A stretch of 64,000 bases of DNA. It comes from a virus. A program made the position numbers and the translations under genes. The notes below the pieces were generated by a model. The model saw only the letters and a program-made list of their open reading frames with translations. It had not been told where the DNA came from and ran no database searches. Positions 4,930-56,106 of the stretch are shown here, piece by piece. The stretch is from the IMG/VR virus record IMGVR_UViG_3300009159_000033. The stretch is one strand, 5' to 3'. The first letter of the stretch is position 1. Every line of letters starts with the position of its first letter.

Positions 4930-4933
4930 TAAA

Positions 4934-6043
4934 ATGAAGAAGATTGGCTTATGCATGATTGTTAAAGACGAGAGCAAAGTAATTAAAAGGTGTCTTGATA
5001 GCGTCAAGCCACTGATAGACTATGTCTGTATTGTGGACACTGGTTCAACCGATAACACGATTGAGCTAATCTTATCTTGGCTTAATGAAAATAACATACT
5101 AGGTAAGGTAATCACAGAACCTTGGAAAGATTTTGCACACAACCGCACCTCCGCACTTGCACACATCCGTAAGCAAGTTGACATGGACTATGTATTGATG
5201 ATCGATGCAGACGAAACCTTGGTGTACGATATTGACTTTGATGCCGATAAGTTTAAACAAACTATGGACAAAGATCTTTACATGATTAAGTGTCATCACG
5301 ATAACATCGTGTTTGATCGTCTATCTATTACAAAGAATGAAAAACCTTTTATATACAAAGGTGTCTTGCACGAGTATGTAGATTGCGAAGAACCAATAGA
5401 AACTAGAGCTGTGTTACTTGGTGTTCGCAACACCACACCACACGATGGGGCAAGAAGCCAAATCAATAAGTTTGAGAATGATGTGGCTATCTTTGAGAAT
5501 GCTCTTCTGACTGAAACAGATCCATTCTTAATAGCAAGGTATACATTCTATCTCGCACAGTCATTCCGAGATCTTAATCAAGATGCCAAAGCATTAAAGT
5601 TTTATCTTGAAAGATCGACAAAGGGTTTCTGGTCTGAAGAAGTCTTTATGTCTCTTTTAAACGCAGCAAGATTGAAAGAAAAATTAAAGTACAAGGATGA
5701 GGATATTATTCAAAGCTACATGCAAGCACATGAGGTAGCCCCCCATAGGATTGAAGCCTTACATGGAGCAGCAAAGTTTTGTCGCACAAGCTCAAAATAC
5801 CATCAAGCTTACATCCTTGGTAAATGGGGACAAAGCCTTCCAGTGCAAAAAGATGGGTTGTTTGTGGAAGCTTGGATCTGGGACTATGGTATAGACGATG
5901 AAGTTAGCGTAAGTGCTTACTGGTCGGGACACTACGAAGATGGGGCAAAAATTTCTAAAGAACTTTTAAAAAAGATACCAGAGAAACATTTGGACAGAAT
6001 TAAACAAAATCTTATCTATTTTGAAGGTAAACTCAAATGCTGA
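4934..6043 (+). CDS. glycosyltransferase family 2 with TPR-like C-terminus
   Basis: KIGLCMIVKDESKVIKRCLDSV, DTGSTD, MIDADE, KGVLHE, RYTFYLAQS; start moved to ATG 4934. Confidence 0.85.
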   Translation: MKKIGLCMIVKDESKVIKRCLDSVKPLIDYVCIVDTGSTDNTIELILSWLNENNILGKVITEPWKDFAHNRTSALAHIRKQVDMDYVLMIDADETLVYDIDFDADKFKQTMDKDLYMIKCHHDNIVFDRLSITKNEKPFIYKGVLHEYVDCEEPIETRAVLLGVRNTTPHDGARSQINKFENDVAIFENALLTETDPFLIARYTFYLAQSFRDLNQDAKALKFYLERSTKGFWSEEVFMSLLNAARLKEKLKYKDEDIIQSYMQAHEVAPHRIEALHGAAKFCRTSSKYHQAYILGKWGQSLPVQKDGLFVEAWIWDYGIDDEVSVSAYWSGHYEDGAKISKELLKKIPEKHLDRIKQNLIYFEGKLKC

Positions 6044-12173: not shown

Positions 12174-12846
12174 GGACGCATTTGCTACACCCCTATTCCT
12201 ATTGGTAATGGATAAGTATGGCCCAGAAGCTATGCAATGGGCTCCAGAAACGATACGCATGGAGCTAGAAGCGGATTTCCAATGTGAGCTGCCTTCATTC
12301 TCCCTAGATAAAATCATGGCTGCAATTACAATTGTAACCACAAACTTCTTTTACAAGGATGTAGGTAGGTTCATATCTATCTGCAACATACTCGCAGGGG
12401 ATGACTTCAATCCCGAAGTCTTTGACCCTGCAGATACAGACGAAATGCTTCTCGGAATTACGGAAGCCATGCTTTTATGGCCTCCGGATGAAGACAAGAA
12501 TGATTCAGAATTTTGTGAAGAAATCCGAGAATACATTTCACAAATGTTAAAGGTAGAAGGTATACTTCACCCCTTCGATGTCCTGCGATTGGCGTTACCC
12601 GCCGACCAATCGGTAAATGTGGACGCAGATTACGCCGATGATCCAGAGATGTATTCTGCCATTTACCAAGTACAGCAGGGGAAGACAGACGAGACGCGGG
12701 CTATATATCTGGATAATGTCTCAGCGTTAGCTAAACAATTATCTGCGTTGTCTTTGCAAAATGGCAGCACAGAACCTATGGTTAAACAACTACAGGATAT
12801 TGTACAAAAGGCTGGGCTGGGATCTTCTCAAGGAGAAGCGTTATGA
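12067..12846 (+). CDS. conserved-looking phage hypothetical protein
   Basis: 259 aa ORF, acidic helical; overlaps the upstream ORF. Confidence 0.65.
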   Translation: MVHNQLLKNLLKQAATSQLSKPVAPKMIQRTLLMSEDAFATPLFLLVMDKYGPEAMQWAPETIRMELEADFQCELPSFSLDKIMAAITIVTTNFFYKDVGRFISICNILAGDDFNPEVFDPADTDEMLLGITEAMLLWPPDEDKNDSEFCEEIREYISQMLKVEGILHPFDVLRLALPADQSVNVDADYADDPEMYSAIYQVQQGKTDETRAIYLDNVSALAKQLSALSLQNGSTEPMVKQLQDIVQKAGLGSSQGEAL

Positions 12847-13019
12847 TGACTGTTATTGCGGTGGCGTTAATGTCGGTAACTAGTGCAGGCGAACCTGCAA
12901 AATGTGCTGGAGCTACTTGCTCCGCTGCCCCTAGAAAGGTAGTGACTATTAATAGGACTCGTACCACAACCAAGGGTTGCGGTGCTAAAGTTAGCAGAAA
13001 GAAACGCTGCTGCCGTTAA
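12843..13019 (+). CDS. small secreted Cys/Arg-rich peptide (not in ORF track)
   Basis: RBS aaggag; MMTVIAVALMSVTSAGEPAKCAGATCSAAPRKVVTINRTRTTTKGCGAKVSRKKRCCR, with a signal-peptide-like N-terminus. Confidence 0.6.
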   Translation: MMTVIAVALMSVTSAGEPAKCAGATCSAAPRKVVTINRTRTTTKGCGAKVSRKKRCCR

Positions 13020-13042
13020 GCACTAGCGTTAAATTACAAACC

Positions 13043-13079
13043 AAAGGACTAGCATGAAAGTGCTGGTCCTTTTTCTTTT
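13043..13079 (+). terminator. intrinsic terminator
   Basis: aaaggactagca-tgaaag-tgctggtccttt followed by a T tract. Confidence 0.7.
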
Positions 13080-13092
13080 ATAGGGGAACAAA

Positions 13093-13350
13093 ATGGAACC
13101 AGTAAAGGTCGTAGTGGTGTGGGCATCTACCCAAGAAAACTTGGACAAAGGGTTTGTCCACATAGTGACTGGGCACGAAGGCCCAAGGGTATACGATAAA
13201 GATGTTTTGGATACAAGAATAGAAGAGGACAAAAACATACCATATGCGTTGACTTGGCAGGAAGCTTGGCACTTCATGGATGGAGCTAACATCGGAAACA
13301 AAGTTCAGTTGAACTTAAAAACAGCAAAGCGTATCGGACTATTTAAATAA
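13093..13350 (+). CDS. hypothetical protein
   Basis: 85 aa, RBS agggga. Confidence 0.55.
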   Translation: MEPVKVVVVWASTQENLDKGFVHIVTGHEGPRVYDKDVLDTRIEEDKNIPYALTWQEAWHFMDGANIGNKVQLNLKTAKRIGLFK

Positions 13351-13359
13351 GGAGAAAGA

Positions 13360-13581
13360 ATGATAGTCAATTTATTCTTTAATGAGCGGGGTCGGGCTAG
13401 GTCTAGAGGAGCATATCACCCACTCAGAAAACGCTACCCATTTACCCGCAACGAGAAAATCGTCGTGAAGCTGGCAGCGAGTTTAAAGGACATGACTATG
13501 GGCGACTACATAAGGTCGGTAGTTGTGCCAAAAGCATCGCAAGATGCAAATAAGATCAACGAAATTATTGACACATTATAA
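13360..13581 (+). CDS. putative ribbon-helix-helix DNA-binding protein
   Basis: EKIVVKLAASLKDMTMGDYIRSVV resembles RHH helices; similar to 36424..36624. Confidence 0.4.
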   Translation: MIVNLFFNERGRARSRGAYHPLRKRYPFTRNEKIVVKLAASLKDMTMGDYIRSVVVPKASQDANKINEIIDTL

Positions 13582-13591
13582 AGGAGAAAAT

Positions 13592-14290
13592 ATGTCGCAT
13601 CTCGCAAGCGGGTTCTGCGTTACAGATATTGAGGCACTCGCCTTGACTGTAAAAGAGAAGTGCCCAGAGTTGGAGTTAGTTAAACAAAAGACCTACAGAA
13701 CATGGACCACCGATCATGGTGGTAGGCTTGTGGGGGATTATCCCCTGCCAGGCTTGTATCAACTCAAAATGATGGCAGTATTAAAGCGGCAAGGTGTTGA
13801 TGTACATGCCAAGGCAGAAGTACAAGGAGTTAAGCTCCCAGCTAATCTCGCTGAGTTGGAACTTAAATCTTGGGACCTAGCCCAGCAAAATTTATTGCTG
13901 CAAGACGCAGAGTTCAAAGCTGCATACCAAAAGATATGCAGTGAAACAGTGGGTCAAGATGCCGAATTCGTCATTCGGTACAAGCAGTCCCACAACAACA
14001 CTAAAGCCTACGAGATAGGCTTGATCCCTCACCCGATAAGAAAAGGTGAATACTTGATGATGACGGACTTCTATGCCCAAGGTAATGGGCTGCTTAATGC
14101 TAAAGGCATGGGCCAGCACAAGTACAAAGACGGAAGCTGGGGTGGAGAGCTTAAGCAAGCTTATGCAGGCATGGCAGCAGAAAGAGCCATCGTATCTCAG
14201 ATCAAAGCTGGGAACCCAGAGTATGGCCGGTATGAGAAGACTGTGTTGCCCGATGGCAAGATAAAGATCGAAGTATTCCCAAGGAGTTAA
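13592..14290 (+). CDS. DUF1257 (Ycf35)-like protein with an internal insertion
   Basis: MSH...VTDIEALALT...TYRTW...GDYPLPG...YEIGL...LKQAYA...KTVLPDGKIKIEV pattern; sits next to DUF2997 and an AAA ATPase. Confidence 0.6.
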   Translation: MSHLASGFCVTDIEALALTVKEKCPELELVKQKTYRTWTTDHGGRLVGDYPLPGLYQLKMMAVLKRQGVDVHAKAEVQGVKLPANLAELELKSWDLAQQNLLLQDAEFKAAYQKICSETVGQDAEFVIRYKQSHNNTKAYEIGLIPHPIRKGEYLMMTDFYAQGNGLLNAKGMGQHKYKDGSWGGELKQAYAGMAAERAIVSQIKAGNPEYGRYEKTVLPDGKIKIEVFPRS

Positions 14291-14291
14291 C

Positions 14292-14489
14292 ATGAACAAC
14301 AAGAAGATCGTCATCATGATCGATGACAAAGGTGAAGTGCAAGTAGAAGCCTTCGGGCACAAAGGTGGAAGTTGCACTAAAGCAACAGATCCACTGACCA
14401 AAGCATTAATAGGCGGAGTGATAGAAGATCGGAAAAAACCCGAATTCTATCAGAATGATGTGACAATAAAAGTTCGTGAGTTCGAATAA
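14292..14489 (+). CDS. DUF2997 family protein
   Basis: IVIMIDDKGEVQVEAFGHKGGSCTKAT...KKPEFYQ. Confidence 0.75.
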   Translation: MNNKKIVIMIDDKGEVQVEAFGHKGGSCTKATDPLTKALIGGVIEDRKKPEFYQNDVTIKVREFE

Positions 14490-14503: not shown

Positions 14504-16351
14504 ATGAATATTGTGGAAAAATTGAATGGGTATTTCGCAGCTGGTCAATCCGGGCTAGTACTTACCTCAGTCGAGCCAGAGGAGTGTCTTCGTGAGCTAG
14601 CTGAAGCAGCTAGAGCTTCGCAAGCAACGGAAGACAGACTTGACCTATTGTTCTGGGATGTTGCCGACGGCGTGACGGATGCCCATGGCAACCCCGTCAA
14701 CCTCGGGGCAGCAGATGCGTCACAAGATGACGATATAGCTGCGTTGGGTCTTGGTAGCTCATCTAAGAAGATTGGGCTGCATGACTGCTTTGAGATCGTG
14801 CTAGGTATGATCCGTGGCCGTGCTTACCGAGCAGCTGCGGATGAGACTAGCGCAGATGATAAGCACATGCGTGTACTTGTTGTAAGGAACTTTGACCGAC
14901 ATCTGATGCCACAAGGCCAGCAAGGTGCACTAGACTCTGTGCTACTAGCACAAGCTCAAAAGCTTATCAACGAGGGGCAAGCAACGCAGGTGTTCTTGAT
15001 CATGCAGACTACACCAGAGTTCGAGCTCCCCATGGAGCTCATGGTTCATTGTGAATATGTGGTGCATGAGCTTCCCACAGGAGAAGAGCGTAGCACCATC
15101 ATCACGGACTTAGGAGTGTCCGAGGTCAGTCAAGCGTTGCTTAATGCAACTGCGGGCCTATCTAGGGCCAAGACGGCACAATATGTAGCAGAGACGATGG
15201 CAAACTTTGGGTACCTTAACCCAGCTGCCATCTTCCAGAAGAAGGCTAGCCACTTGTCTAGGGCATCCAAGCTGGATGTCTGGAGTCCAGAGTTTGTTAC
15301 GCAGATCAAGCTGTGGCCAACCCCTAACTGTCTTGAGCTGCAAGATGCTACAGATGTGACAATGATCCAAGAGGAGAGTCATGTCCAGAACAAGCAGTTA
15401 AAGGAAGGGGAAATCCGTGTAAGGGTAAAGTATGTGCAGAATGGTAAGAAGATAGAGAAGTGGCTAGACCCAATGCTATCTAGTTACTTTGAGCACACAT
15501 GCCGACCCGAGCGGGATTTCTTCTCGCTTAAGTCGGTGGTTGGTCTTAATGGTTTGAAGGGTTTTCTAAGGAAAGGTTTTAGACCCGAAGTGCCAGATCG
15601 TGCCCGCATGAAGCATGTCCTTATGTTGGGTGTGCCGGGCACTGGTAAGTCATTTACCATGCAGTGCTGCTCCGGCGAGTTCAACACTCCGCTATCCAGC
15701 ATGCAAGCTTCCAATCTGTATTCCAAGTGGCTGGGCGACACCGACAAGATCCTTGCTAGAATGCTATCCACAGTTGAGATGATCGGTGGCATCCTTGCTA
15801 TCGACGAGTTTCAGCGGTTCTTGCCCCAAGGTGGTGGTGGCGAAAGCGGTGGGGTAGAAAGCCGTCTGTTGGGTACGCTACTCGGTTGGTTTAACAATCA
15901 GCAAAGTAACTTAGTGTTATCGGCGGCTAACAACATCAGCAACCTACCCGACGAGATCACCCGCTCTGGTCGTGTGGATGCTTTGATGTTTGTAGGTTTC
16001 CCAGGCAGAGAAGCCAAGGATGCTGCATGGGCTATGTACATGAAGCGGCATGAGCTAATCGAGCAAGAGAGACCAGAAGACAACTATTGGACTCCAGCCG
16101 ACATCATGTCGTGCTGTCGTCTAGCTGAGTTACAAGGTGTAACCATCAAGTACGCAAGCAGGTGGATAACTCCTTCGTATGAAAAGAATCAGAAACAGAT
16201 GGATGGCCTAATGGAGTGGGCAGAGTCCGCTGGCTGTATCTGCTCCGAAAGTGGAGAACGGTTTAAGCATCCAAAAAGTGCAGGGAAATCCTCTGTGACT
16301 GATGCCCCTAAGAAAGTGACTAGAAAAGTAAAAACTAGTCGAGAACTCTAA
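14504..16351 (+). CDS. AAA+ ATPase, Ycf46-like
   Basis: Walker A GVPGTGKS, Walker B ILAIDE, SRH AANNISNLPDEITRSGRVD; degenerate N-terminal AAA domain. Confidence 0.85.
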   Translation: MNIVEKLNGYFAAGQSGLVLTSVEPEECLRELAEAARASQATEDRLDLLFWDVADGVTDAHGNPVNLGAADASQDDDIAALGLGSSSKKIGLHDCFEIVLGMIRGRAYRAAADETSADDKHMRVLVVRNFDRHLMPQGQQGALDSVLLAQAQKLINEGQATQVFLIMQTTPEFELPMELMVHCEYVVHELPTGEERSTIITDLGVSEVSQALLNATAGLSRAKTAQYVAETMANFGYLNPAAIFQKKASHLSRASKLDVWSPEFVTQIKLWPTPNCLELQDATDVTMIQEESHVQNKQLKEGEIRVRVKYVQNGKKIEKWLDPMLSSYFEHTCRPERDFFSLKSVVGLNGLKGFLRKGFRPEVPDRARMKHVLMLGVPGTGKSFTMQCCSGEFNTPLSSMQASNLYSKWLGDTDKILARMLSTVEMIGGILAIDEFQRFLPQGGGGESGGVESRLLGTLLGWFNNQQSNLVLSAANNISNLPDEITRSGRVDALMFVGFPGREAKDAAWAMYMKRHELIEQERPEDNYWTPADIMSCCRLAELQGVTIKYASRWITPSYEKNQKQMDGLMEWAESAGCICSESGERFKHPKSAGKSSVTDAPKKVTRKVKTSREL

Positions 16352-26529: not shown

Positions 26530-28158
26530 ATGAAATATTTATCAGTGTGTTCAGGGATAGAAGCCGCAACCGCAGCTTGGCACCATCTTGGTTGGAAGCC
26601 TGTTGCCTTCTCAGAAATTGATAAATTCCCTTCTGCAGTCCTCCACCATCATTACCCTAAAGTCCCTAACCTTGGGGATATGACTAAGTACATGGAATGG
26701 AAAAATGAAAAAATCGATCTTCTCGTCGGCGGCACTCCCTGTCAAAGCTTCTCCATCGCCGGCCTTAGAAAAGGTCTCGAAGATCCCCGAGGTAACCTTA
26801 TGCTTACCTATCTTGCAATCGCTGCGCGTTACCAACCTAGGTGGATGGTCTGGGAAAACGTCCCCGGTGTTCTGTCCTCCAACGGAGGAAGGGATTTTGG
26901 AACCTTCCTCGGGGCGTTGGGAAACTTGGGGTATGGGTTCGCATTTAGGGTCATGGACGCTCAGTGGTTCGGAGTGGCCCAGAGAAGGCGACGTGTGTTC
27001 GTTGTCGGATGTCTTGGAGACGCAGGGAGTGCAGCAAAAGTTCTATTTGAGTCCGAGAGCTTGTCAAGGCATCCTGCGCCGAGCAGAGAAACGGGGAAAA
27101 GAGTTGCCGCCACTCTTACGGGCGGCTTTGGAGAACGCGGCGTTGATTCCGACCAAATAGCTAATGGCAACTATGCAGTTGCGGCTTGCCTCAGAAGTGG
27201 TGGCAATGGCGGGGTGCCAAGCTCCAGAGGCGAGCATTTAGTTGTCGGCAGTCTCGACACCGAATGCGGTGGCGGGAAGTTGACGCACCAAACAATAGCC
27301 AATGGTCATATCATCGGTGAATGGCAAAGCCCAAATGGTAAAGACATCGTAGGGGCTATGCGGGCTAGAGACTACAAAGGAATTGGTAATGATGACCTTA
27401 CCGAAGGTCGTGGGCTAGCAGTAGCCTATGCCTTCGAGCCGGGCATTGCAGCTCGAGAAGGTAATCCTAGTCGATTCACAGAGGAAGTAGCGGGCACATT
27501 AAGACGCAACATGGGAGATAACCAGACTGCAGTAGCCATCGGTACTGACTGCTACAATGGTGCAGTAACTGGAGATGTCTCCGCAACCGTAACCTCAAGT
27601 ACAGGCAGCAGTGCGACCCATTCTGGTCCCACTGTGATGCAACCTGTGCTTGGTACTGACTGCTACAATGGTGCGATCACTGGAGATGTTGCTGCCACGA
27701 TGGGTACATCAGGCAGCAGCGTAAATGCCAGCGGTCCGACTGTTATGCACGCATTCAGAATGCAAGCCTTCGGTGAATACGCAGACGACCAGACAGCCTC
27801 AGCCATGAAGGCTAGAGATTACAAGGACGCAACCGACCTAGTGTCTGTAACAACTATGAAAGCAGTTGGCACAGATATGTTTAATGGTGCGATAACTGGC
27901 GATGTTGCAGTGCCCATGACCAACAGAGCAGACGGAACAGGTACCGGCCCCACTGTCATGCAAGCCATGGCAGTGCGAAGATTAACCCCCATCGAGTGTG
28001 AAAGATTGCAAGGATTCCCTGACAATTACACTCAGATTCCCTGGAGTAAAAAGCCAGCGGATCAGTGCCCAGATGGAGTTCGTTACAAAGCATTAGGTAA
28101 CAGCATGGCTGTACCCGTAATGCGTTGGATTGGCGAACGAATCAACAAGTTCAAATAA
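26530..28158 (+). CDS. DNA (cytosine-5) methyltransferase
   Basis: Motif I YLSVCSGIEA, IV GGTPCQSFS, VI WENVPGV, VIII QRRRRVF, C-terminal RRLTPIECERLQGFPD and RYKALGNSM. Confidence 0.95.
   Translation: MKYLSVCSGIEAATAAWHHLGWKPVAFSEIDKFPSAVLHHHYPKVPNLGDMTKYMEWKNEKIDLLVGGTPCQSFSIAGLRKGLEDPRGNLMLTYLAIAARYQPRWMVWENVPGVLSSNGGRDFGTFLGALGNLGYGFAFRVMDAQWFGVAQRRRRVFVVGCLGDAGSAAKVLFESESLSRHPAPSRETGKRVAATLTGGFGERGVDSDQIANGNYAVAACLRSGGNGGVPSSRGEHLVVGSLDTECGGGKLTHQTIANGHIIGEWQSPNGKDIVGAMRARDYKGIGNDDLTEGRGLAVAYAFEPGIAAREGNPSRFTEEVAGTLRRNMGDNQTAVAIGTDCYNGAVTGDVSATVTSSTGSSATHSGPTVMQPVLGTDCYNGAITGDVAATMGTSGSSVNASGPTVMHAFRMQAFGEYADDQTASAMKARDYKDATDLVSVTTMKAVGTDMFNGAITGDVAVPMTNRADGTGTGPTVMQAMAVRRLTPIECERLQGFPDNYTQIPWSKKPADQCPDGVRYKALGNSMAVPVMRWIGERINKFK
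26705..27160 (+). CDS. nested alternative-frame ORF resembling the beta polypeptide of split C5 methyltransferases (M.EcoHK31I type)
   Basis: 151 aa ORF inside the MTase in another frame, ending SLSDVLET...FYLSPRACQGILRRAEKRGKELPPLL. Confidence 0.6.
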   Translation: MKKSIFSSAALPVKASPSPALEKVSKIPEVTLCLPILQSLRVTNLGGWSGKTSPVFCPPTEEGILEPSSGRWETWGMGSHLGSWTLSGSEWPREGDVCSLSDVLETQGVQQKFYLSPRACQGILRRAEKRGKELPPLLRAALENAALIPTK

Positions 28159-30712: not shown

Positions 30713-31309
30713 ATGAAGAATCAAGGATACGAAGCGTGGACTTCCAGACTCAAATTCTTCAATGGAGAGTTTGGGTTCGGACCACTTAAACGAATCTTAA
30801 ATGAAGATGGTAGGCTCCATTGTGATAATGGGCCAGCCTACATTAGTCCAACGAGGATAATGTGGTACAAGAATGGTCAACAGCATGGGATGGATGCCGA
30901 CAAGTTCGGCAGCATCCTGTATTACTATGAAGGGGTGCGTATTCCTCCGCATTTCTTTACCAAGCCGGAAACGGTTTTGTTAGAAGAGGTGTTGCGAAAT
31001 CCAAACACTGAGGTAAGATATGTAGGCATGAAGGTCATAGGTCTAGAAAAGATTATGGCCCTGCCTACTACTAAAATTATCCACAAGGATGTGGATCAGT
31101 TTGGAAGAGAAAGGATTCTGTTTGAGATCCCAAGGGTCTTCACAGAGCCTACCTTGTATGTCAAGGTAGTCAACTCTACTGCAGAGCCCGATGGTACATT
31201 TAAGAATTACTTCTTATGCGTACCTCCCACGATGAAAACTTGCCTTGAGGCAGTTGCGTGGACCAATTACATGAAGGCTGACAAGTATCAGCCTTCGCAA
31301 GAATCTTAA
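30713..31309 (+). CDS. DUF6745-like phage protein
   Basis: RLHCDNGPA, NTEVRYVGM, VKVVNSTAEPDGTFKNYFLCVPP...EAVAW. Confidence 0.7.
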   Translation: MKNQGYEAWTSRLKFFNGEFGFGPLKRILNEDGRLHCDNGPAYISPTRIMWYKNGQQHGMDADKFGSILYYYEGVRIPPHFFTKPETVLLEEVLRNPNTEVRYVGMKVIGLEKIMALPTTKIIHKDVDQFGRERILFEIPRVFTEPTLYVKVVNSTAEPDGTFKNYFLCVPPTMKTCLEAVAWTNYMKADKYQPSQES

Positions 31310-31330: not shown

Positions 31331-31657
31331 ATGAAGAATTTTCAAAGTCGTCAAGGTGATATCTTTTTCAAGACTGTGGCTAAGCCCAAGGACTTGAAGG
31401 AGATGAAGAAGCATGAATCTAGAATTCTTGCATTCGGAGAAGTGACTGGTCACAGTCATGCCATCAAAGCAGGGCCCGAAGTCGAAAGCTATGTAAATGT
31501 AAAAGGAGATATCTATCTCTTTTCCAAAGAAGAAACCATCGTAGGACATGATGAGCATTCGGATATCCGTTTGCCCGCCAACAGCTGGGTATGTGTCACC
31601 AGACAGCGTGAGTATGACCCCTTATCTGCAGAGCGTGAACGTAAAGTAGCAGACTAA
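31331..31657 (+). CDS. conserved phage protein usually paired with DUF6745
   Basis: RQGDI...LAFGEVTGHSH...HDEH..I.LP...RQREY. Confidence 0.7.
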   Translation: MKNFQSRQGDIFFKTVAKPKDLKEMKKHESRILAFGEVTGHSHAIKAGPEVESYVNVKGDIYLFSKEETIVGHDEHSDIRLPANSWVCVTRQREYDPLSAERERKVAD

Positions 31658-31690: not shown

Positions 31691-31718
31691 AAGGGAGCAG
31701 AGTGTCTGCTCCCTTTTT
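31691..31718 (+). terminator. intrinsic terminator
   Basis: aagggagcaga-gtg-tctgctcccttttt. Confidence 0.7.
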
Positions 31719-31753: not shown

Positions 31754-32071
31754 ATGGCAAAAGTAAAGAACAAAGTGGCTTTGGTTAACATCGATGGCAC
31801 CCTTGCTGGCAACATGGCTAGTATTGCACAACAGTTTCTGGGTCAACCTGTTGCGGTGCTTTGTGCCCGCTACAACTATCGTGGAATCCTCAGCCATGTG
31901 GCTGATGACTGCCTAGTGTTGGCCCAAGCTAGGGCAGTAGAGACATCGGGTGCTTCTTCCCAAGAGCAACCTAACACAGAGGATCCAATCGGTTCTTCTG
32001 TTGTGATCTCCTTAGGTGCTATAGAGATCATCTATCAGCCACGCTGGTGCTTCGCTCCCTTGGATGCATAA
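31754..32071 (+). CDS. Sm/Hfq-like fold protein (putative), first gene of the microprotein array operon
   Basis: QFLGQPVAVLC..YNYRGILSHVADDCLVLAQA...VVISLGAIEII matches the Sm1/Sm2 beta-strand pattern. Confidence 0.55.
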   Translation: MAKVKNKVALVNIDGTLAGNMASIAQQFLGQPVAVLCARYNYRGILSHVADDCLVLAQARAVETSGASSQEQPNTEDPIGSSVVISLGAIEIIYQPRWCFAPLDA

Positions 32072-32083
32072 CAAGGGGTGCAT

Positions 32084-35000
32084 ATGAGAATAATAAGATC
32101 TATTCCGCCGTGGTCCAGAGCACAGCTCTGGACCAATGGTTGGACTTGTAGCACTTTTAGAACAGTCTACTGCGTGTATTCATGTAATAGAACAGTGATA
32201 CAGCCTTGGTCAGTTAACTGGTCACATAGTGAAGTTATTTCCACTACAGCATGGAGGGAATACCGATGATAAGAAGAAGTATAGATTTTGCGGGGTCTGA
32301 GTCTTGGGCCGAGAATTTTAATACATCTATTTGGATGCCATTTGCACCTCAATATGTGGCTGTGGCTTGGTCTCAAAATTATGCTAAATCTTGGTCTGGG
32401 ATTGGGTCTTGGGCTAGGTCTGGTGCTTGGGTTAAAAATAGAATTGAATCTTGGCATTGGAGGGATAACTTATGATAAGAAAAACAATATATTCTCAAAC
32501 TTATTCTTGGGCTTTGTCTTACCCTACAGCTTGTCACTGGATGTTTACTTTTAAAAGCTGGTCTAGGTCTTGGATATGGAAAAAGCATTGTCCTAAGTCT
32601 AAATCTTGGAGAAATAACTTATGATAAGAAAAATATCATATAGAGGGTCATACTCTTGGAGAGGTGCTATGGATAAGCCTTGGGGCGAAACTGAATCTGC
32701 AGCTTGGTCAGATTCTAGGTACAGATTTGGAAATTGGAGTTTAACTAGGGCTTGGGCAAAGTCTTGGTCTTCTTTTTCTTCTTGGGGTTGGGTTTGGTCG
32801 GCGACAGCTGTTATGTCTTCACCTACATCCGAGTCATGGGGAGAAGACACATGATAAGAAAAGTATTGGCAAATTCTCAAACTGAAGCTTGGTCCATAGG
32901 TCTTTCTTGGTGCCATCATCACTCTTGGGCTGCGCCTTGGAGTTGGAACTGGCATTTAAGTCAAACTTACACTAAGTGCTGGCCTCAAGCTAGACTGCGT
33001 TCTAAATTCGTAGTCGATTCCACCCCTAGATCTTGGAAGCACCACATATGATAAAACGAACAATGAGAGAACCTGAAAAACTATCTCGTAACTGGGCTGG
33101 GTCTGTGTACTGGTCTGCGTCTTTGTTATCCGGTTCTGGATCTCTAGGCTGGCCCGGACGCTGGCATTACAGCTATGCGTGGAAATCTAGAAACTGGACC
33201 CTAGCTATTCTGCGAATAGGATGGAGATAACATGATAAGAAAAACATTAATAACTCCTAGATCAAGAGATTGGTCAGACTTGTTTTTATGGGGAACTTGC
33301 TTTACACGGAACTGGCACAGAGCCACCGCTACGCCTTCCGGAAAAGCTTGGTCCTACTTGTGGGTCTTTCCAAAACTCAGATCTAATTCTTGGAGTTCTT
33401 TCCGATGATAAGAAGAAAAGCTTTTGGCCAATCTTTCTCTTGGTCTTTAGATACGAACATGTCTTGGTGTTTGGCTAAATATAGACCTTGGCCTACATGG
33501 GCTCATCTTTGGACAGAAGAATGGCGTATTGGCGGGTCTTGGGCTGAGGACAATATAGAATCTTCCTCTTGGAAAGGAGATATATGATAAGAAAGCTAGC
33601 ACGGCCTAGAACTATAGCTTGGGCGGGATTTACGTGCAAGTCTGGGTGTTCTGAGAATTGGAGTTGGGTGTGCGAGGTTTGGCGTAGGTCCGACAATTAC
33701 TCTGTATGTTGGACTAAGTTTGGGTGTTGTTCTTGGGTATGGAGGAATAACACATGATAAGAAAAATGCGACCTGATTCTGGGGCTATGTCCCTTTCTTG
33801 GCATTGCTCTGCGTTTAGGTCTAAGTCTTGGGCTGAGTCTTGGCCCGGGATTAGGTCTTGGTCTTCGTTTATGATTTGGTCCTGGTCTTGGCACTGGGCT
33901 AGCTCTAGATCTTGGAAAGGACATATATGATAAGAAAAATATGGTCTGGGTCTGGGTCTGAGTCTGGGTCTTGGTCTGAGTCTGGGGCTGAGTCTGGGTC
34001 TTGGCCTAGGTCTGGGTCTTGGTCTTGGCCTTGGTCTGTGCCTTGGTTTTGGTCTGGGTCTTGGTCTAAATCTTGGAAAGGGCGTATATGATAAGAAAAA
34101 CTTTAGCTATGGGAGGTTGTGCTTGGTCTACATCTCAACCTTCCGCTAGTGTTGACAATACAGACTTCGATATGCGAGAGCGTAGTGTTATTAATTTTTG
34201 TTGGACTAGGCTTCGTTGGAAATCTGTTAGCGGTCAAGATGGTGAAATTACTTCTTATTCTTGGAGCACCAGCACATGATAAGAAAAACAAAATGTTTTG
34301 CTGCTACGACTTTTTCTCGGGATTGTGCTAGATCTTGGGATTGGACAGAAGAATGGCGTGAGTCTTGGTCTTGGTCTATGTCTAATTATGATTCTGGGTC
34401 TTGGACTAATACTTGGGTAAAGGCTAGGTGCTGGGGAAGGAATTCTCAATGATAAGAAAAACAAATGCAGTAATCATCTCTGATGTTTGGAATTGCCAAC
34501 AGAAATGTTCGTGGTTTAATCAATGGGATCATTACGATTTAAAATCAGGTAACTGGTTTCGTGAGCGCACCCATAGCGATTTTGGTAGTTCCATATGGTA
34601 CAACCGTTCCCACTCTTGGAGAACAAATCAATGAGAACGATAATATCGTCAACACGGTCTAAAAATTGGACGATAGAAATGAAAAGGTCTACAACATCAA
34701 CTAACCCTTGGTCGCTTTCTCTGCACAGTTGTGCTGCTTGCTGGTCTTTGTGTCGTCTATTCTCTGAAGCTATTTGGGTTCGATCAAAGAGTTGGAGAAC
34801 AGACGCATGATAAGAAAGGTAGCCAGAATACATGCTAAGACCGGATCTTGGGACAACAGTTATGTCTGGTCTTCGTGGGGTGGCACACTTGTTAAAGGGC
34901 CAGGTGTTCCATTCTTTGGAGGCTGGGGTTCTGGCCCTGCATTTTCTAAAGTCTGGGCGCATCGTCACCTATGGTCTGACTATGGGGTTGCACTCTGGCC

Positions 35001-35395
35001 GTCACCTAGAAGGAGGAGGTAATGATAAGAAGAACTAACTCATTTCCAGGAGCTCAATCTAAGTCTTTTACAGAAGCTATAGTTTGGAGTTACTCTTATC
35101 CAAGAAATCATTCTTGGTCTGCAAGTTGGAGAGTTCTTGTAGCCACAAGTAGATCAGAATCTTGGTCTCTTGACTGGACTACTTATTGGAAAGGAATGTT
35201 CCAATGATAAGAAGAATACGATCTGCAAATTGTTCATGGGATACTAAACTCCCTTCTAAAGGTTGGCATAGAAATAGGATTTGGTCGTTGAGTAATCTCA
35301 ATGCAATGTCAAAATCCAGATTTGTAAACAATGCGTATTCAGGTGTATGGGCTATTAATAGCTCTGCAACTGAAAATTGGTCACAACAATTCTAA
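32084..35395 (+). repeat. tandem array of 18 Trp/Ser-rich microprotein ORFs (50-77 aa) with conserved junctions
   Basis: Units: 32084-32269, 32266-32475, 32472-32624, 32621-32854, 32851-33051, 33048-33230, 33232-33408, 33405-33587, 33584-33757, 33754-33930, 33927-34091, 34088-34279, 34276-34452, 34449-34634, 34631-34810, 34807-35022, 35022-35207, 35204-35395. 15 of 18 start ATGATAAGAA (MIRK/MIRR) and 15 of 17 junctions are ATGA overlaps. Every unit is open from start to stop. Confidence 0.9.
33927..34091 (+). CDS. array unit 11, low-complexity (Ser-X)n peptide
   Basis: MIRKIWSGSGSESGSWSESGAESGSWPRSGSWSWPWSVPWFWSGSWSKSWKGRI; near-pure TCTGGG/TCTTGG hexamer repeats; missing from the ORF track (<60 aa). 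Confidence 0.8.
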   Translation: MIRKIWSGSGSESGSWSESGAESGSWPRSGSWSWPWSVPWFWSGSWSKSWKGRI

Positions 35396-35413: not shown

Positions 35414-35707
35414 ATGGAAACTAAATCGTTCAGTCATATACCTTTCTTCACCAAACCCGAACTACTAAAAGCCAACTTGTTGGCAATCAATAGAGGTTAC
35501 AACCGCACTCTTAGCCCAGAGCTGCTAGCAGAACTGCCAGAAGACTTCATATTCCCAGTAAGCTTCAGCATGATTCATGAACATGCTGCAGGCAACTCAG
35601 TAGATCCGCACATGCGTTGCATCATAATCACAGGGCACAACTGTAAAGGAGTATTCTTAGATTGCGATATGAACATCTTTAAACAAATTAAAGAAAGAAA
35701 GGACTAA
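35414..35707 (+). CDS. hypothetical protein
   Basis: 97 aa ORF after the array. Confidence 0.6.
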   Translation: METKSFSHIPFFTKPELLKANLLAINRGYNRTLSPELLAELPEDFIFPVSFSMIHEHAAGNSVDPHMRCIIITGHNCKGVFLDCDMNIFKQIKERKD

Positions 35708-52632: not shown

Positions 52633-55600
52633 ATGGCACGAAAGATAAAGATGGCGGGAGGAGGTGGGATTGCTCCAGCAATTAAAACTTCCTCTGCAGC
52701 AATTGAAATGGTTTATAAAAAACGATTACATGAAGTACAGAATGGCGGAGGCATCTTTCCTTTAGCAGCTCCCGGCTTGCCTATCTTGCCTGCTAACTCT
52801 GCGTTTCTTAGACATGTGTTAGGCTTAGGAGATATCGAGTCTAAGTTAGTTGAGGAAACGATAACCAATGCCGATGGAGAAAAAACTAAAGCAAAGCGAT
52901 TAGAGTACAGTAATGAACTGATGAATTTAATCCTGTGTTCTTTACGAGTTTCTCCTTTTACTTTAGATGTAGAAGTAGGCCCGCACCAGTTTAAAGAAGC
53001 AGAGTTTGTTCTCGGTCACTTGTTAGGCTCGGTCACGCCTAGCGGTCCAGTTCCTGCAGATGTGATGATCATTGGACGCAATCCTTGGGCGGAAGAAGTT
53101 AATCTAGGTAGATGCATGGCAGGAGCAGATGGAACTCTATTGATTAATACCTTTCGTAATTTAAAGGCATCTAATTTAAGTAAATTTTATGTAACAAATT
53201 TAGTTAAGTTTAAACCGCCAGATTACAAAACCACATTAAAAGCGGTTTGGATCAAAGACTGCATGCATCTGCTTTACCAAGAGATAAAGATTGTGCAACC
53301 TAAGTACATTCTTTGCTTGGGTGCGGATGTTAGTAAAGCTTTGCTTGGCGGTACTGCTGGCGTAGGTGAGATGGAAGGTAGAGTAGAAAAACTACGCTAC
53401 AATGTTGCGTTTACATCTAGAGATCAAGAGCAGCATTGGAAAGAAGCACAGGTTATGACAGTGGTACATCCTAGGCAAGTACTTCGAGATCAATCTGCGG
53501 GCAGACAACTAGAAAACGGAATATCTCGTTTCATTGCTTTAACCAAGGGAGTAACGATTGGAGCTTCAGAAGTAATAGATCATAAGGTGGTGGATAACCA
53601 TTGGGATCTGCTGCAGCAACTTATTAGCATTGAGAAAGACGAGAACAAGAGAGACAGCATTATTGCAGTAGATGCAGAATGGCATGGAAAACATCCTATC
53701 AACAAGAATGCTTACATGCGAACTATGCAAATCTCGTGGTATGAGAAGAAAGCACTTGGTATCAAGTTTCATGAGGCTGGGGGTGAGATGACTCCCGGTT
53801 TTGCTACTAGTAGAGCAAGACAGTTACCCGACAAAACTCTAAAGCTTTTAAACATGTTCTTTCTTGGCGGTGTCTTTAAATACAAAGATGCTGAAGAGGT
53901 CAAAGAAATTAAGTTTAGGCGTAAACGAGTTATCGGGCATTTCTTCAATGCAGATTTAGAATGGTTGTTAGATTACGGAATCAACATCCAAGCTTGTTTC
54001 TCATGCCAGTTGTTTGATTATGAAATGAAGCCAGAAAATGCGGATAAGAGATTGTTTAAACTTTACAAGAAAGAAGGGTTTACTGAAGAAGCAATCGTAC
54101 CCGCATGGTATCGCACTAATTTTGAAGGTGGGGCAGACACAGGGTTGATGGCACATGCTATTGAAGAAACCGCTAGTTATAAGTTAGAAACTTTGGCGAT
54201 GCGGTATACTTCGGCTCCAAGGTATGACCGAGAACTGCAACATTGGAAGACAGCTTACTGCAAATCTCAAGGTATCACTAATGCAGATCTAGAAGGTTAT
54301 GGAGAGTGCCCTGACGATATTTTGCTGCCTTATGGTATGTACGATGCTGATGTTACTTTGCGGTTGTTCTACAAGTTGTCAGTGTTACTTGATGAAGATT
54401 ACGAAGGTAATAACTGTCGAGAAGCATTTTGGGAATCTCAGATTGCAACCCCTGCGGTGTTAGAGATACACCGGACTGGAATTACTGTAGACAAGGATCG
54501 TATTGATTTTCTAACTAAACGATTCATGCATGCAAAGAATACACTTGAAGTAAAGCTACGCACAGAAATCAAATGGCCCGAGTTTAATATTAGGTCTACG
54601 CAACATGTGCGAGAATTTCTTTATGGTCATGCTCTTAATGGTAAGAAAGACAGTAAAACTGGAGATGTAATAAGGTTAAGGCCAGCGGGTGCAGTTAGCT
54701 TAAACTTAGAGCCATTGTTTGACACAGGTAAACCGCCTAAGCCTTGGTCTGAAGTTAAAAAGTTAGGTAGGTCGGCGGAGCACGCTCCATCTACTAACAA
54801 AATGATTTTATCATTGTTGGCTCAAGCAACTTCTAATGAAGGTAAAGCAAAGTTAATAAATCAACTGCGTGATTACCGATTCTTAGATCAAGTCTTGAAA
54901 ACAGTTTTGCATCCTCCTACTTGTGACGAGGCTACCGAAGAATCAATGTACGATGACGATGGTAACTTAGAGTACAACGATGGACTTGCTTCTTTGTGCT
55001 GCGATGATGGCAAAGTGCGTACTCATGTCTATCAAACCAAGGAGACTGGAAGGTGGTCTAGTGCTCGCCCTAACTTACAAAACATTAGTAAGCAGCGAGA
55101 CCCAGACTACAAACGGCTACTTGGGGAGGAAGATTACAAATACACTTTGCGTAGTGTGCTAAAAGCTTCGCCTGGCCATGTGATGGTAGAGGCAGATTAT
55201 GTTGGTGCAGAGTTATTCGGAATGGCAGTTATGTCTGGTGACGAAAATATGATTAAACATGCGTTGCGAAATCAACTGCCTGAGAATCATCCAGATTATT
55301 ATGACATACACAGCCAAGTGGCTTGCTTTGCATTTAAGTTAGATTGCCCACCTACTAAAAGTGGTTTAGCTGCTATAGGTAAAAAGCACATTAGGATCGT
55401 AGCCAAGTCTGTAATTTTCGGCATTGCATATGGTCGAGGCCCTAAAGCAATTGCGATAGCAGCAAAAGAGCAAGGTATTGAAATTGAAGTAGATGAAGCA
55501 CAGGCGGTCATCGATGCAATTTTCCAAATGTATCCAAGGTTAAATCCATTCTTTAAAGAATGCAAAGATCGAGCAACTGGAAGTTACATAGATCCAAAGA

Positions 55601-56106
55601 CCGGCGAGACAGTAGCTGGGCGTTACTTGTGTAATTGCTATGGTAGGTTTCGTAGGTTTCCCGAAGCTCACTCTGACAGAGGTCTAGAAGGTGAGTTTGA
55701 AAGGCAAGCTATGAACTACCCAATTCAATCTATGATTGCTTCAGCGGTTAGCCGTGCTTTGGCTTATATCCACGATTACAAGGAAAAGCAGTTAAAGCAG
55801 GGTAAAGACTTGTTTAAAGTATTGCTCCAAATCCACGATGCAGTGCTGCTTGAGGTTCCTTACGAACATGTAAAACATGTTTGCGAATATGTTTTGCCTA
55901 CTTTCATGCGAGACGCAGTTCCAATCTATCCTTCTAGCTTAGATGGGTTACCAACTGGAACCGGCCCATATTACTTAGGGATTGAAATGGAAGTGGTAAA
56001 GCATTGGGGTGAACTTTTAACAGCAGCAGAAGCTCGAGAACTTGGATTGCCGGTTGGAGTCGGTGGAGTTGAAAGCTGTGTTGTCAATTACAGTAAACCT
56101 GATTAA
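52633..56106 (+). CDS. polA: family A DNA polymerase with N-terminal uracil-DNA-glycosylase-like and 3'-5' exonuclease domains
   Basis: UDG-like DVMIIGRNPW...YVTNLVK...QPKYILCLG; Exo VDAEW, YDADVT; motif A EADYVGAEL, B AKSVIFGIAYG, C QIHDA. Confidence 0.95.
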   Translation: MARKIKMAGGGGIAPAIKTSSAAIEMVYKKRLHEVQNGGGIFPLAAPGLPILPANSAFLRHVLGLGDIESKLVEETITNADGEKTKAKRLEYSNELMNLILCSLRVSPFTLDVEVGPHQFKEAEFVLGHLLGSVTPSGPVPADVMIIGRNPWAEEVNLGRCMAGADGTLLINTFRNLKASNLSKFYVTNLVKFKPPDYKTTLKAVWIKDCMHLLYQEIKIVQPKYILCLGADVSKALLGGTAGVGEMEGRVEKLRYNVAFTSRDQEQHWKEAQVMTVVHPRQVLRDQSAGRQLENGISRFIALTKGVTIGASEVIDHKVVDNHWDLLQQLISIEKDENKRDSIIAVDAEWHGKHPINKNAYMRTMQISWYEKKALGIKFHEAGGEMTPGFATSRARQLPDKTLKLLNMFFLGGVFKYKDAEEVKEIKFRRKRVIGHFFNADLEWLLDYGINIQACFSCQLFDYEMKPENADKRLFKLYKKEGFTEEAIVPAWYRTNFEGGADTGLMAHAIEETASYKLETLAMRYTSAPRYDRELQHWKTAYCKSQGITNADLEGYGECPDDILLPYGMYDADVTLRLFYKLSVLLDEDYEGNNCREAFWESQIATPAVLEIHRTGITVDKDRIDFLTKRFMHAKNTLEVKLRTEIKWPEFNIRSTQHVREFLYGHALNGKKDSKTGDVIRLRPAGAVSLNLEPLFDTGKPPKPWSEVKKLGRSAEHAPSTNKMILSLLAQATSNEGKAKLINQLRDYRFLDQVLKTVLHPPTCDEATEESMYDDDGNLEYNDGLASLCCDDGKVRTHVYQTKETGRWSSARPNLQNISKQRDPDYKRLLGEEDYKYTLRSVLKASPGHVMVEADYVGAELFGMAVMSGDENMIKHALRNQLPENHPDYYDIHSQVACFAFKLDCPPTKSGLAAIGKKHIRIVAKSVIFGIAYGRGPKAIAIAAKEQGIEIEVDEAQAVIDAIFQMYPRLNPFFKECKDRATGSYIDPKTGETVAGRYLCNCYGRFRRFPEAHSDRGLEGEFERQAMNYPIQSMIASAVSRALAYIHDYKEKQLKQGKDLFKVLLQIHDAVLLEVPYEHVKHVCEYVLPTFMRDAVPIYPSSLDGLPTGTGPYYLGIEMEVVKHWGELLTAAEARELGLPVGVGGVESCVVNYSKPD

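Follow-up and report, generated by a model that had tools for sequence, protein, structure and literature searches.

Can a run of very short, tryptophan-rich open reading frames (ORFs) packed head to tail in a phage genome be a set of real genes, and what might such genes do? This question is raised by positions 32084-35395 (+) of a 64,000-nucleotide (nt) stretch of viral DNA, IMG/VR record IMGVR_UViG_3300009159_000033, referred to as a whole as the window. As a first inspection of the letters (the original prediction) had stated, this region is tiled by 18 ORFs of 50-77 amino acids (aa). Judged from the sequence, the array consists of genuine coding genes that are co-transcribed and translationally coupled via a dual-coded junction. 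It occupies a variable slot in the genome, about 210 kb in size, of an uncultured aquatic phage. The individual units are listed below; related arrays, which are described further on, are named by contig (L numbers), and pN/pS denotes the ratio of the proportions of nonsynonymous and synonymous differences.

32084..32269, + strand: unit A, head unit, 61 aa, start MRIIR
32266..32475, + strand: unit B, 69 aa; in all six close lineages; duplicated in L073 and L137
32472..32624, + strand: unit c, 50 aa; strain-specific, no orthologue in nine other arrays
32621..32854, + strand: unit d, 77 aa; strain-specific; 53% identical to the (TCT TGG)n template
32851..33051, + strand: unit E, 66 aa; common to L069; dN ~ dS
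33048..33230, + strand: unit F, 60 aa, start MIKR; in all six lineages; pN/pS about 0.3-0.7; Trp kept 7/7
33232..33408, + strand: unit G, 58 aa; in all six lineages; pN/pS about 0.3
33405..33587, + strand: unit H, 60 aa; in all six lineages; relatives of 31-43% identity in L053, L068 and L074
33584..33757, + strand: unit I, 57 aa, Cys-rich; common to L123, L137 and the distant L074
33754..33930, + strand: unit j, 58 aa; strain-specific, repeat-like; (TCT TGG)n template identity 66%
33927..34091, + strand: unit k, 54 aa; strain-specific; almost entirely a (TCT-NGG)n hexamer repeat; template identity 80%
34088..34279, + strand: unit L, 63 aa, only 4 Trp; common to L123, L137 and L089
34276..34452, + strand: unit M, 58 aa; common to L123, L137 and L069; dN ~ dS
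34449..34634, + strand: unit N, 61 aa; in all six lineages; pN/pS 0.05-0.4
34631..34810, + strand: unit O, 59 aa, start MRTII; in all six lineages
34807..35022, + strand: unit P, 71 aa, Gly/Pro-rich with C-terminal RRRR; ends in a TAATG overlap
35022..35207, + strand: unit Q, 61 aa
35204..35395, + strand: unit R, terminal unit, 63 aa; closes the array in the window, L073, L069, L089 and L123

Analysis of the reading frames revealed no stop among the 1106 codons of the unit frame, whereas the other two forward frames contain 65 and 94 stops; at the stop rates of these other frames the chance of an open array frame is about 1e-30. The distance from start to start is 149-230 nt and equals 2 modulo 3 in 16 of 17 cases. 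A recount also bore out the predicted ATGA overlaps at 15 of 17 junctions, the 4-10 tryptophan (Trp) residues per unit and the 18 open frames. An alternative genetic code or a frameshifted polyprotein could be ruled out: the other genes are normal in translation table 11, and every junction carries a tandem stop together with its own ribosome-binding site and start. Scans of the window for tRNAs and for Rfam families gave no match.

Characterization of the junctions demonstrated a conserved segment of about 25 nt with the consensus TCT...tcTTGGAG.....ac..ATGATAAGAAaAA, in which GGAG is located at -13. The element TCT-TGG-AGx contains the last serine-tryptophan (Ser-Trp) codons as well as the GGAG ribosome-binding site, TGGAG doubling as last Trp codon and Shine-Dalgarno site. 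The following element, ATGATAAGAA, combines the start codon of the next unit, the TGA-TAA tandem stop of the previous unit and an A-rich initiation region. In ATGATAA the start codon is followed, one base on, by the TGA-TAA tandem stop for the upstream unit, and the A-rich codons behind it encode Arg-Lys. The start sequence is ATGATAA(G/A)A in 16 of 18 units, which gives MIRK, MIRR or MIKR, and ATGAGAA in two, which gives MRIIR in unit A and MRTII in unit O. Neighboring units are offset by -4 (ATGA) at 15 of the 17 junctions; one junction is a TAATG overlap and one, behind unit F, a gap of 1 nt and the only one without overlap. The dual-coded junction supports the proposed translational coupling. 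Ribosomes would terminate and then re-initiate along the operon, which would provide all peptides in similar amounts. The TGA-TAA tandem stop is present in the upstream frame at every ATGA junction (32266-35207). UGA is the stop codon most often misread by tRNA-Trp, and a back-up stop may matter in genes so rich in Trp codons.

The conserved unit ends described in the original prediction are present, and 56 of 96 distinct units have their last Trp as fifth residue counted from the C-terminus. A peptide function is not needed for this conservation, because the junction with its ribosome-binding site, stop and start encodes both MIRK and the tail of Trp plus four residues, and translation signals alone can explain both ends. 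Read in this way, the conserved ends do not indicate a leader or follower peptide. This bears on the earlier suggestion of precursors for a modifying enzyme, that is, a library of ribosomally synthesized and post-translationally modified peptides (RiPPs) with Trp or Ser modified by an enzyme encoded elsewhere in the phage or provided by the host. The array shares with RiPP arrays served by one maturase, e.g. the prochlorosins, many short paralogous ORFs in tandem whose ends are constant and whose middles are hypervariable. In addition, conservation is seen for Trp and Ser, and motifs such as WSWNW recall Trp-crosslinked peptides. However, a RiPP leader or follower typically comprises at least 15 aa, and the units have only MIRK and the tail of Trp plus four residues in common, so that nothing resembling a real leader extends beyond the junction-encoded residues. 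Cys is poorly conserved, Trp is found along the whole length of the 50-77 aa units, and the ORFs overlap head to tail. A maturase was not found either: Radical_SAM and YcaO are absent from five related contigs, three of which are 76-88% complete, and the 38 scanned ORFs of the window, the larger ones included, contain no RiPP enzyme in a search that did not cover LanM/LanB, P450 or host enzymes. The suggestion was not supported and is highly improbable.

The common N-terminus also invites a comparison with the internal proteins of phage T4 (ipI, ipII, ipIII), which are small and basic and have a common N-terminus, variable bodies and a plastic locus. Peptides of this type would be packaged with the DNA in the virion and injected to protect or condense DNA. 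The array units are likewise small, basic and numerous, with hypervariable bodies behind a common N-terminus in a hyperplastic locus, but only four residues (MIRK) are shared, for which start context and tandem stop provide an explanation. The targeting sequence of the T4 proteins has about 10 residues and ends in a protease site. In contrast, residues 5-12 are unconserved between the units, no prohead-protease site motif follows the N-terminus, and the array is surrounded by small accessory genes and replication genes, not by structural genes. We consider a role as ejected internal peptides quite unlikely.

The composition of the units is unusual. Trp accounts for 11.4% of the array residues, whereas 17 other genes of the window contain 1.8%; Ser accounts for 16.8% in the array. 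The mean net charge is about +5. The maximal Kyte-Doolittle hydropathy over 15 residues is 1.15, and neither a signal peptide nor a membrane or hydrophobic segment is present. The Trp residues follow a period of two: successive Trp-Trp spacings of 2, 4, 6, 8 and 10 occur 81, 123, 99, 59 and 72 times, whereas odd spacings occur 2-15 times. Within a unit 81% of the Trp residues are in one phase, compared with 65% in simulations (maximum 69%). The other phase contains 29% Ser, followed by Ala, Thr and Pro, which are single-base neighbors of TCT. The pattern produces a modest amphipathic signal (beta-type hydrophobic moment, z about 2.5-2.8). An AlphaFold2 (AF2) model of unit H from 13 sequences showed three weak beta strands with a predicted local distance difference test (pLDDT) value of 55, which is too low for a fold search, and a complex prediction with four copies of unit H, performed without control runs, scored 0.01, which argues neither for nor against self-assembly. 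The Trp framework of unit H is strongly conserved, with W13, W21, W40, W46 and W56 invariant and W29 and W36 retained in at least 90%. High Trp content and positive charge are also known from Trp/Arg-rich cationic peptides such as indolicidin, tritrpticin and the puroindoline Trp domain; these are, however, secreted or processed peptides of 13-40 residues, whereas the array units have 50-77 aa, lack a signal peptide, are Ser-rich and show the period-2 Trp pattern.

At the DNA level this pattern corresponds to a hexanucleotide. TCT makes up 62% of the Ser codons in the array and 27% elsewhere in the window, and TCTTGG occurs 12 times per kb in the array compared with 0.35 per kb elsewhere, always on one strand and, in 40 of 40 copies, in frame 0. 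Compared with a phased (TCT TGG)n template, unit interiors show 27-80% identity; 60-codon pieces of other genes, which served as control, reach 24% on average and 32% at most. Mean template identity is 60% for the strain-specific units c, d, j and k and 35% for the units found in all six close lineages. An independent repeat finder gave copy spacings that are mostly multiples of 6 (12, 18, 24 and 30 nt), and the same holds for the repeat family of unit k (D1). Strain-specific units are thus close to a (TCT-TGG)n repeat from which widely shared units have drifted away, the gradient expected if new units arise by hexanucleotide-repeat expansion and mature afterwards. Fish antifreeze glycoprotein genes are built from a 9-nt repeat unit. 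They resemble the array in a coding sequence derived from short-repeat expansion, a function that would depend on composition, and tandem copies; the array differs in its phage origin, in its separate coupled ORFs in place of a polyprotein and in the gradient from pure repeat to complex sequence within one locus.

To find related arrays, IMG/VR contigs were searched with a two-junction pattern, which identified arrays in L053, L061, L065, L068, L069, L073 and L074 (the L069 array is also present in L017 and L007, and L026 matches L065). A three-junction pattern search of metagenomes added L123, L134, L137 and L148, and a protein look-up revealed further arrays in L089-L093, which come from several ENA samples. 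The more distant L157, whose Sm protein is 79% identical, contains a 15-unit array with other start variants and only 8 copies of TCTTGG. Arrays of 15-23 units are thus found in many independent metagenome contigs of one phage clade, and the same tiling was observed in L123, L069, L089 and L157. An assembly artefact can be dismissed, as the same architecture recurs in independent IMG/VR, JGI and ENA assemblies. Orthologues of unit A head every array including those of the distant L074 and L157, with W10, R12, A13, L15, W16 and W20 invariant. Where arrays of relatives seemed to have gaps, these contain units that start differently or have masked bases. Well over 100 unit copies, distributed over about 10 arrays, include no frame broken by a stop or frameshift; the only possibly degenerate unit lacks an ATG (L123 9365-9568, in a 23-unit array, junction ...GGTAATAATTCAAAA). 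Its frame is open for about 65 codons, and it has either a non-canonical ATA/ATT start or represents the only decaying unit seen.

Outside this clade the family could not be traced. The three-junction DNA pattern gave nine matches in 185,579 prokaryote genomes, none of them a real array and none providing a clue to a host or prophage. Pfam and PHROG scans of the units gave no match, an ESM Atlas feature search yielded only scores of 0.76, which correspond to noise, and a homologous-protein search with unit H returned only its own cluster. A head-unit profile run against 1.84 billion representatives recovered its own cluster and repeat-translation junk only. A literature search on Trp-rich phage microprotein arrays and on DUF6745, the family of a neighboring gene, found nothing relevant. 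For the architecture and the protein family no described counterpart was found, in agreement with the earlier statement that no system of this form was known.

Comparison of the array maps confirmed that unit number and content vary between strains. The order A B .. F G H .. N O .. P Q R forms a collinear backbone in the six close lineages; variable slots are located between B and F, H and N, O and P, and P and R. Ten arrays comprise 78 families, 54 of which are singletons. Duplications were found for W in L123 as well as for B, and L065 carries five copies of a unit. Distant lineages have units in common (unit I with L074; a unit of L068 in L123), and the units at L123 8750 and L137 10301 are chimeric, pieces of unit I recurring in chimeric units of both contigs. 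When the window array was compared with five relatives, 54 of 61 endpoints of high-scoring segment pairs were located within 25 nt of a junction (27% expected by chance, p ~5e-24). These data indicate that the array evolves by birth and death: gain, loss and duplication affect whole units, which recombine as cassettes and have their breakpoints at the junction.

A comparable behavior is known from the hyperplastic regions of T4-type phages, where PeSLs, which are intergenic promoter and terminator cassettes, separate unrelated ORFans. Close relatives differ there in whole cassettes that were inserted, deleted or replaced, and the conserved motif is the site of exchange (Arbiol et al. 2010, PMC2839356). 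By analogy, this modular shuffling is the closest match to the behavior of the array: both consist of small genes without annotated function separated by a short conserved motif, and cassette insertions, deletions and replacements with breakpoints at the motif were found here as well (54/61). The array differs in that no intergenic DNA is present and the motif is translational, consisting of RBS, stop and start and overlapping both genes. The units overlap by 4 nt, promoter-like sites number 10 compared with 19.5 in shuffled sequences, and no strong internal terminator exists. Furthermore, a single compositional superfamily (Trp/Ser, period 2) includes all cassettes, and coupling joins the units in one operon.

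The nonsynonymous to synonymous substitution rate ratio (dN/dS) was determined to compare orthologous units of the window, L073 and L069; the three pairs gave overall values of 0.32, 0.59 and 0.41. The values of single units lie between about 0.1 (N, P) and about 1 (B, E, M, Q), and unit P is the most conserved one, with 93-94% identity between strains and a pN/pS of 0.12-0.3. Trp positions are kept in 59 of 59 and 78 of 83 cases in orthologous units. In unit interiors conservation amounts to 96% for Trp, 88% for Ser, 59% for Ala and 49% for Cys; at the observed synonymous divergence of about 0.2, roughly half of the TGG codons should have changed under neutrality. The values point to moderate purifying selection on orthologues, chiefly on Trp and Ser, and, together with the open frames in relatives, they support the proposed selection on the peptides. 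The label hypervariable holds for the fast divergence of paralogues and the turnover of cassettes, but not in the sense of hypermutation, as orthologous units are 55-100% identical between strains. All units common to L089 and L091 are identical, and the copies of three families are identical in five samples. A diversity-generating retroelement target was rejected, with no RVT_1 domain in five related contigs and identical units in L089 and L091. A CRISPR-like non-coding repeat-spacer array was rejected as well, the supposed spacers being open frames under purifying selection without an Rfam family.

Synonymous change in Ser codons before Trp is 9%, compared with 15-16% elsewhere, which suggests a mild constraint at the nucleotide level. 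The functional product of the array might be its RNA, with the UCUUGG- and UGG-dense transcript acting as sponge or decoy either for a host ribonuclease that is sequence-specific or for an RNA-binding protein such as the Sm-fold protein encoded next to the array, and with translation serving mainly to keep the RNA covered and stable. The strand-specific enrichment of TCTTGG, the bias of Ser codons to TCT, the slightly reduced synonymous change in TCT-TGG and the Sm-fold gene directly upstream are in line with such a role. The strict frame-0 location of all 40 copies is not, and old conserved units have lost most TCTTGG copies but keep open frames and a low dN/dS. The L157 array still comprises 15 Trp-containing units with its 8 copies, and Sm-fold genes are common without arrays. 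An RNA product is in our view very unlikely.

The gradient from repeat-like to conserved units suggests how such an array could be supplied with genes. The junction would make any in-frame insert an expressed microprotein, (TCT-TGG)n would be the raw material, and units would be present at all stages from pure repeat to mature protein under purifying selection, resulting in a repertoire of Trp-framework binders against the host. Such a gene nursery is possible, and we propose it with reservation. In a version with little or no present function, repeat and plug-and-play junction would generate expressed ORFs that are mostly near-neutral passengers, and a role would be limited to a small number of old units (F, G, H, N, P). 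The low-complexity repeats of the strain-specific units, the 54 singletons among 78 families, the several units with dN close to dS and the confinement of the family to one phage clade in the head-unit profile search agree with neutrality. It is difficult to reconcile with the lack of any stop- or frameshift-broken frame in well over 100 unit copies and with the retention of 96% of the Trp codons where neutral drift would have changed roughly half. Moreover, selection on phages to discard useless DNA is strong, and still every lineage of the clade has kept arrays of 15-23 units. We regard the largely neutral version as unlikely.

The immediate surroundings of the array contain the following features:

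30713..31309, + strand: DUF6745 protein gene (Pfam PF20530, E=4e-23), first gene of a conserved trio upstream of the array
31331..31657, + strand: 108-aa gene (phrog_27831, PHROG match E=6e-7), second gene of the trio, syntenic in all relatives
31691..31715, + strand: intrinsic-terminator-like hairpin with an 11-bp stem and a T tail, just before the Sm-like gene
31754..32071, + strand: Sm/LSm-fold protein gene (105 aa), third gene of the trio, stops 12 nt before unit A
35414..35707, + strand: conserved 97-aa gene, downstream array boundary, 94-99% identical in relatives

From the Sm-like gene to the array end the terminator scan revealed no site comparably strong to the hairpin at 31691..31715. 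The DUF6745 protein is 83-99% identical in all array-bearing relatives and is also encoded in array-less ones, and an orthologue of the 97-aa boundary gene follows the L157 array too.

The label Sm-like, given to the 31754 protein in the original prediction, proved correct at the level of the predicted fold. The AF2 model, built from 57 sequences, has a pLDDT of 89.6 and corresponds to the Sm/LSm fold, in which an N-terminal helix is combined with a five-stranded, strongly bent beta sheet that can be superposed on Sm proteins; the top Foldseek matches in the PDB are Sm/LSm proteins (prob 1.00, template modeling score by target 0.58-0.79). PDB sequence searches with the three trio proteins gave nothing significant, and for the DUF6745 and 108-aa genes no PDB relative was found. 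The Sm-fold protein has more than 150 clusters of relatives, mostly in phages without array. Homologues accompanied by a DUF6745 gene, and in several cases by the gene of about 108 aa, occur in varying order across a large uncultured phage group.

In every array-bearing lineage the Sm-fold gene directly precedes unit A, with the terminator upstream, which might suggest that the peptides are interchangeable partners or tails of this protein, each docking on the Sm ring and thereby altering the RNA specificity or the assembly of the ring. The array-less contexts examined argue against this. Six more distant relatives (L151/L152, L153, L155, L158, L159 and L160; about 60-66% identity) keep the Sm gene, mostly with DUF6745 nearby, but neither an array nor a Ser-periodic ORF adjoins it. 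Because the gene is conserved at about 60-66% in many array-less phages, the function of the Sm-fold protein cannot depend on the array. In addition, the more distant lineage of L053 (2246-4366 and 5316-5573, - strand view) and L068 (401-1758) has further Trp/Ser units: a second block is located upstream of DUF6745 and thus not next to the Sm gene, and one unit is found between the phrog_27831 gene and the Sm-fold gene. More than one slot around the conserved trio is therefore open to colonisation by units. As evidence, synteny inside a single collinear phage clade carries little weight. A dedicated Sm-peptide partnership is possible, but the proposal of variable partners was not supported and has a small chance of being correct. 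Because of the array-less relatives and the second block, the array is best described as an insertion into a variable slot beside a conserved module, present in one sub-clade only. The array-less L159 contains two isolated unit-like ORFs about 6 kb from the Sm-fold gene (14121-14309 and 14718-14858; MITRK..SQSWSRS.. and ..SFSRSYSFSHCW..), which may be seeds or relics of an array.

The function of the peptides can be addressed tentatively. We favor, without great confidence, a coupled array of cytoplasmic, basic, beta-prone binders that serves as a diversifying accessory repertoire for host take-over or counter-defence. The products would be small, beta-prone binders with an aromatic face, whose activity would rest on the Trp/Ser/Arg framework and leave the residues between free to diversify. 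The most plausible targets would be nucleic acid or host proteins in the cytoplasm, and the peptide set would act as a fast-evolving accessory repertoire in host take-over or counter-defence. Anti-defence or decoy binders, as suggested in the original prediction, are possible. Several points weigh against this assignment. It draws only on composition, the position among small accessory genes and evolutionary behavior, and modeling of a unit gave no confident fold (pLDDT 55). In several units dN close to dS may reflect neutrality and not diversifying selection, and the TCT preference with the lower synonymous change before Trp would also be compatible with a constraint that acts on the RNA or DNA.

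Provided that the peptides have a function, they would constitute a phage protein class not described so far, with a Trp framework built on every other residue and 15-23 coupled genes, and the junction would code for two proteins and three translation signals at once. With young repeat-like and old conserved units in the same operon, and with many natural strains that differ by single cassettes, de novo gene birth becomes directly testable. Should the binder-generating nursery exist, it would add a so far undescribed class to the accessory systems of phages and offer a natural time series in which genes are born de novo. Each genome carries about 3 kb of coding sequence without a Pfam or PHROG family. 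Gene callers recognize the units patchily (3 of about 15 were called in L157) and, because of this and the missing families, the number of such arrays in viromes is probably underestimated.

The window consists of phage DNA and carries genes for a gpA-type terminase, PolA fused to a uracil-DNA glycosylase (UDG) domain, a DnaB-like helicase and SbcC/D; further genes encode a C5 methyltransferase, a thymidylate kinase and glycosyltransferases. The 178.8-kb IMG/VR contig G001 is about 87% identical across the window and contains no tRNA and a single array. It is 83% complete according to CheckV, from which the genome size of about 210 kb was derived. A slight excess of TCTTGG at 92.5-95.5 kb of G001 is not accompanied by an ORF of at least 80 aa on the + strand, to which the scan was limited. 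A blastn search of the window against 50,697 phage records yielded only a low-complexity match of 100 nt to Synechococcus phage S-SCSM1 (window 33815-33916, 75% identical, opposite strand of a 'virulence associated protein' gene), which probably reflects nothing more than a similar repeat composition. No isolate is close to the PolA protein, and no cultured relative of the phage was found.

Some minor observations were made in the relatives and elsewhere in the window. The array-less relative L160 encodes a stand-alone Peptidase_C39 domain (4629-5108) without a counterpart among the larger ORFs of the window; Peptidase_C39 is the type of protease that processes bacteriocin leaders. In L158 a gene at 12843-13919 (-) combines N_methyl and SBP_bac_10 (DUF1559) domains. 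Genes of this type are very abundant in Planctomycetota and Verrucomicrobiota, a weak hint to these phyla as host group of the phage assemblage. In the window, a 151-aa ORF (26705-27160) lies in another frame inside the C5 cytosine methyltransferase gene (26530-28158). The family A DNA polymerase is encoded by an ORF of 1163 aa at 52615-56106, with the uracil-DNA glycosylase superfamily domain at its N-terminus (residues 144-295).

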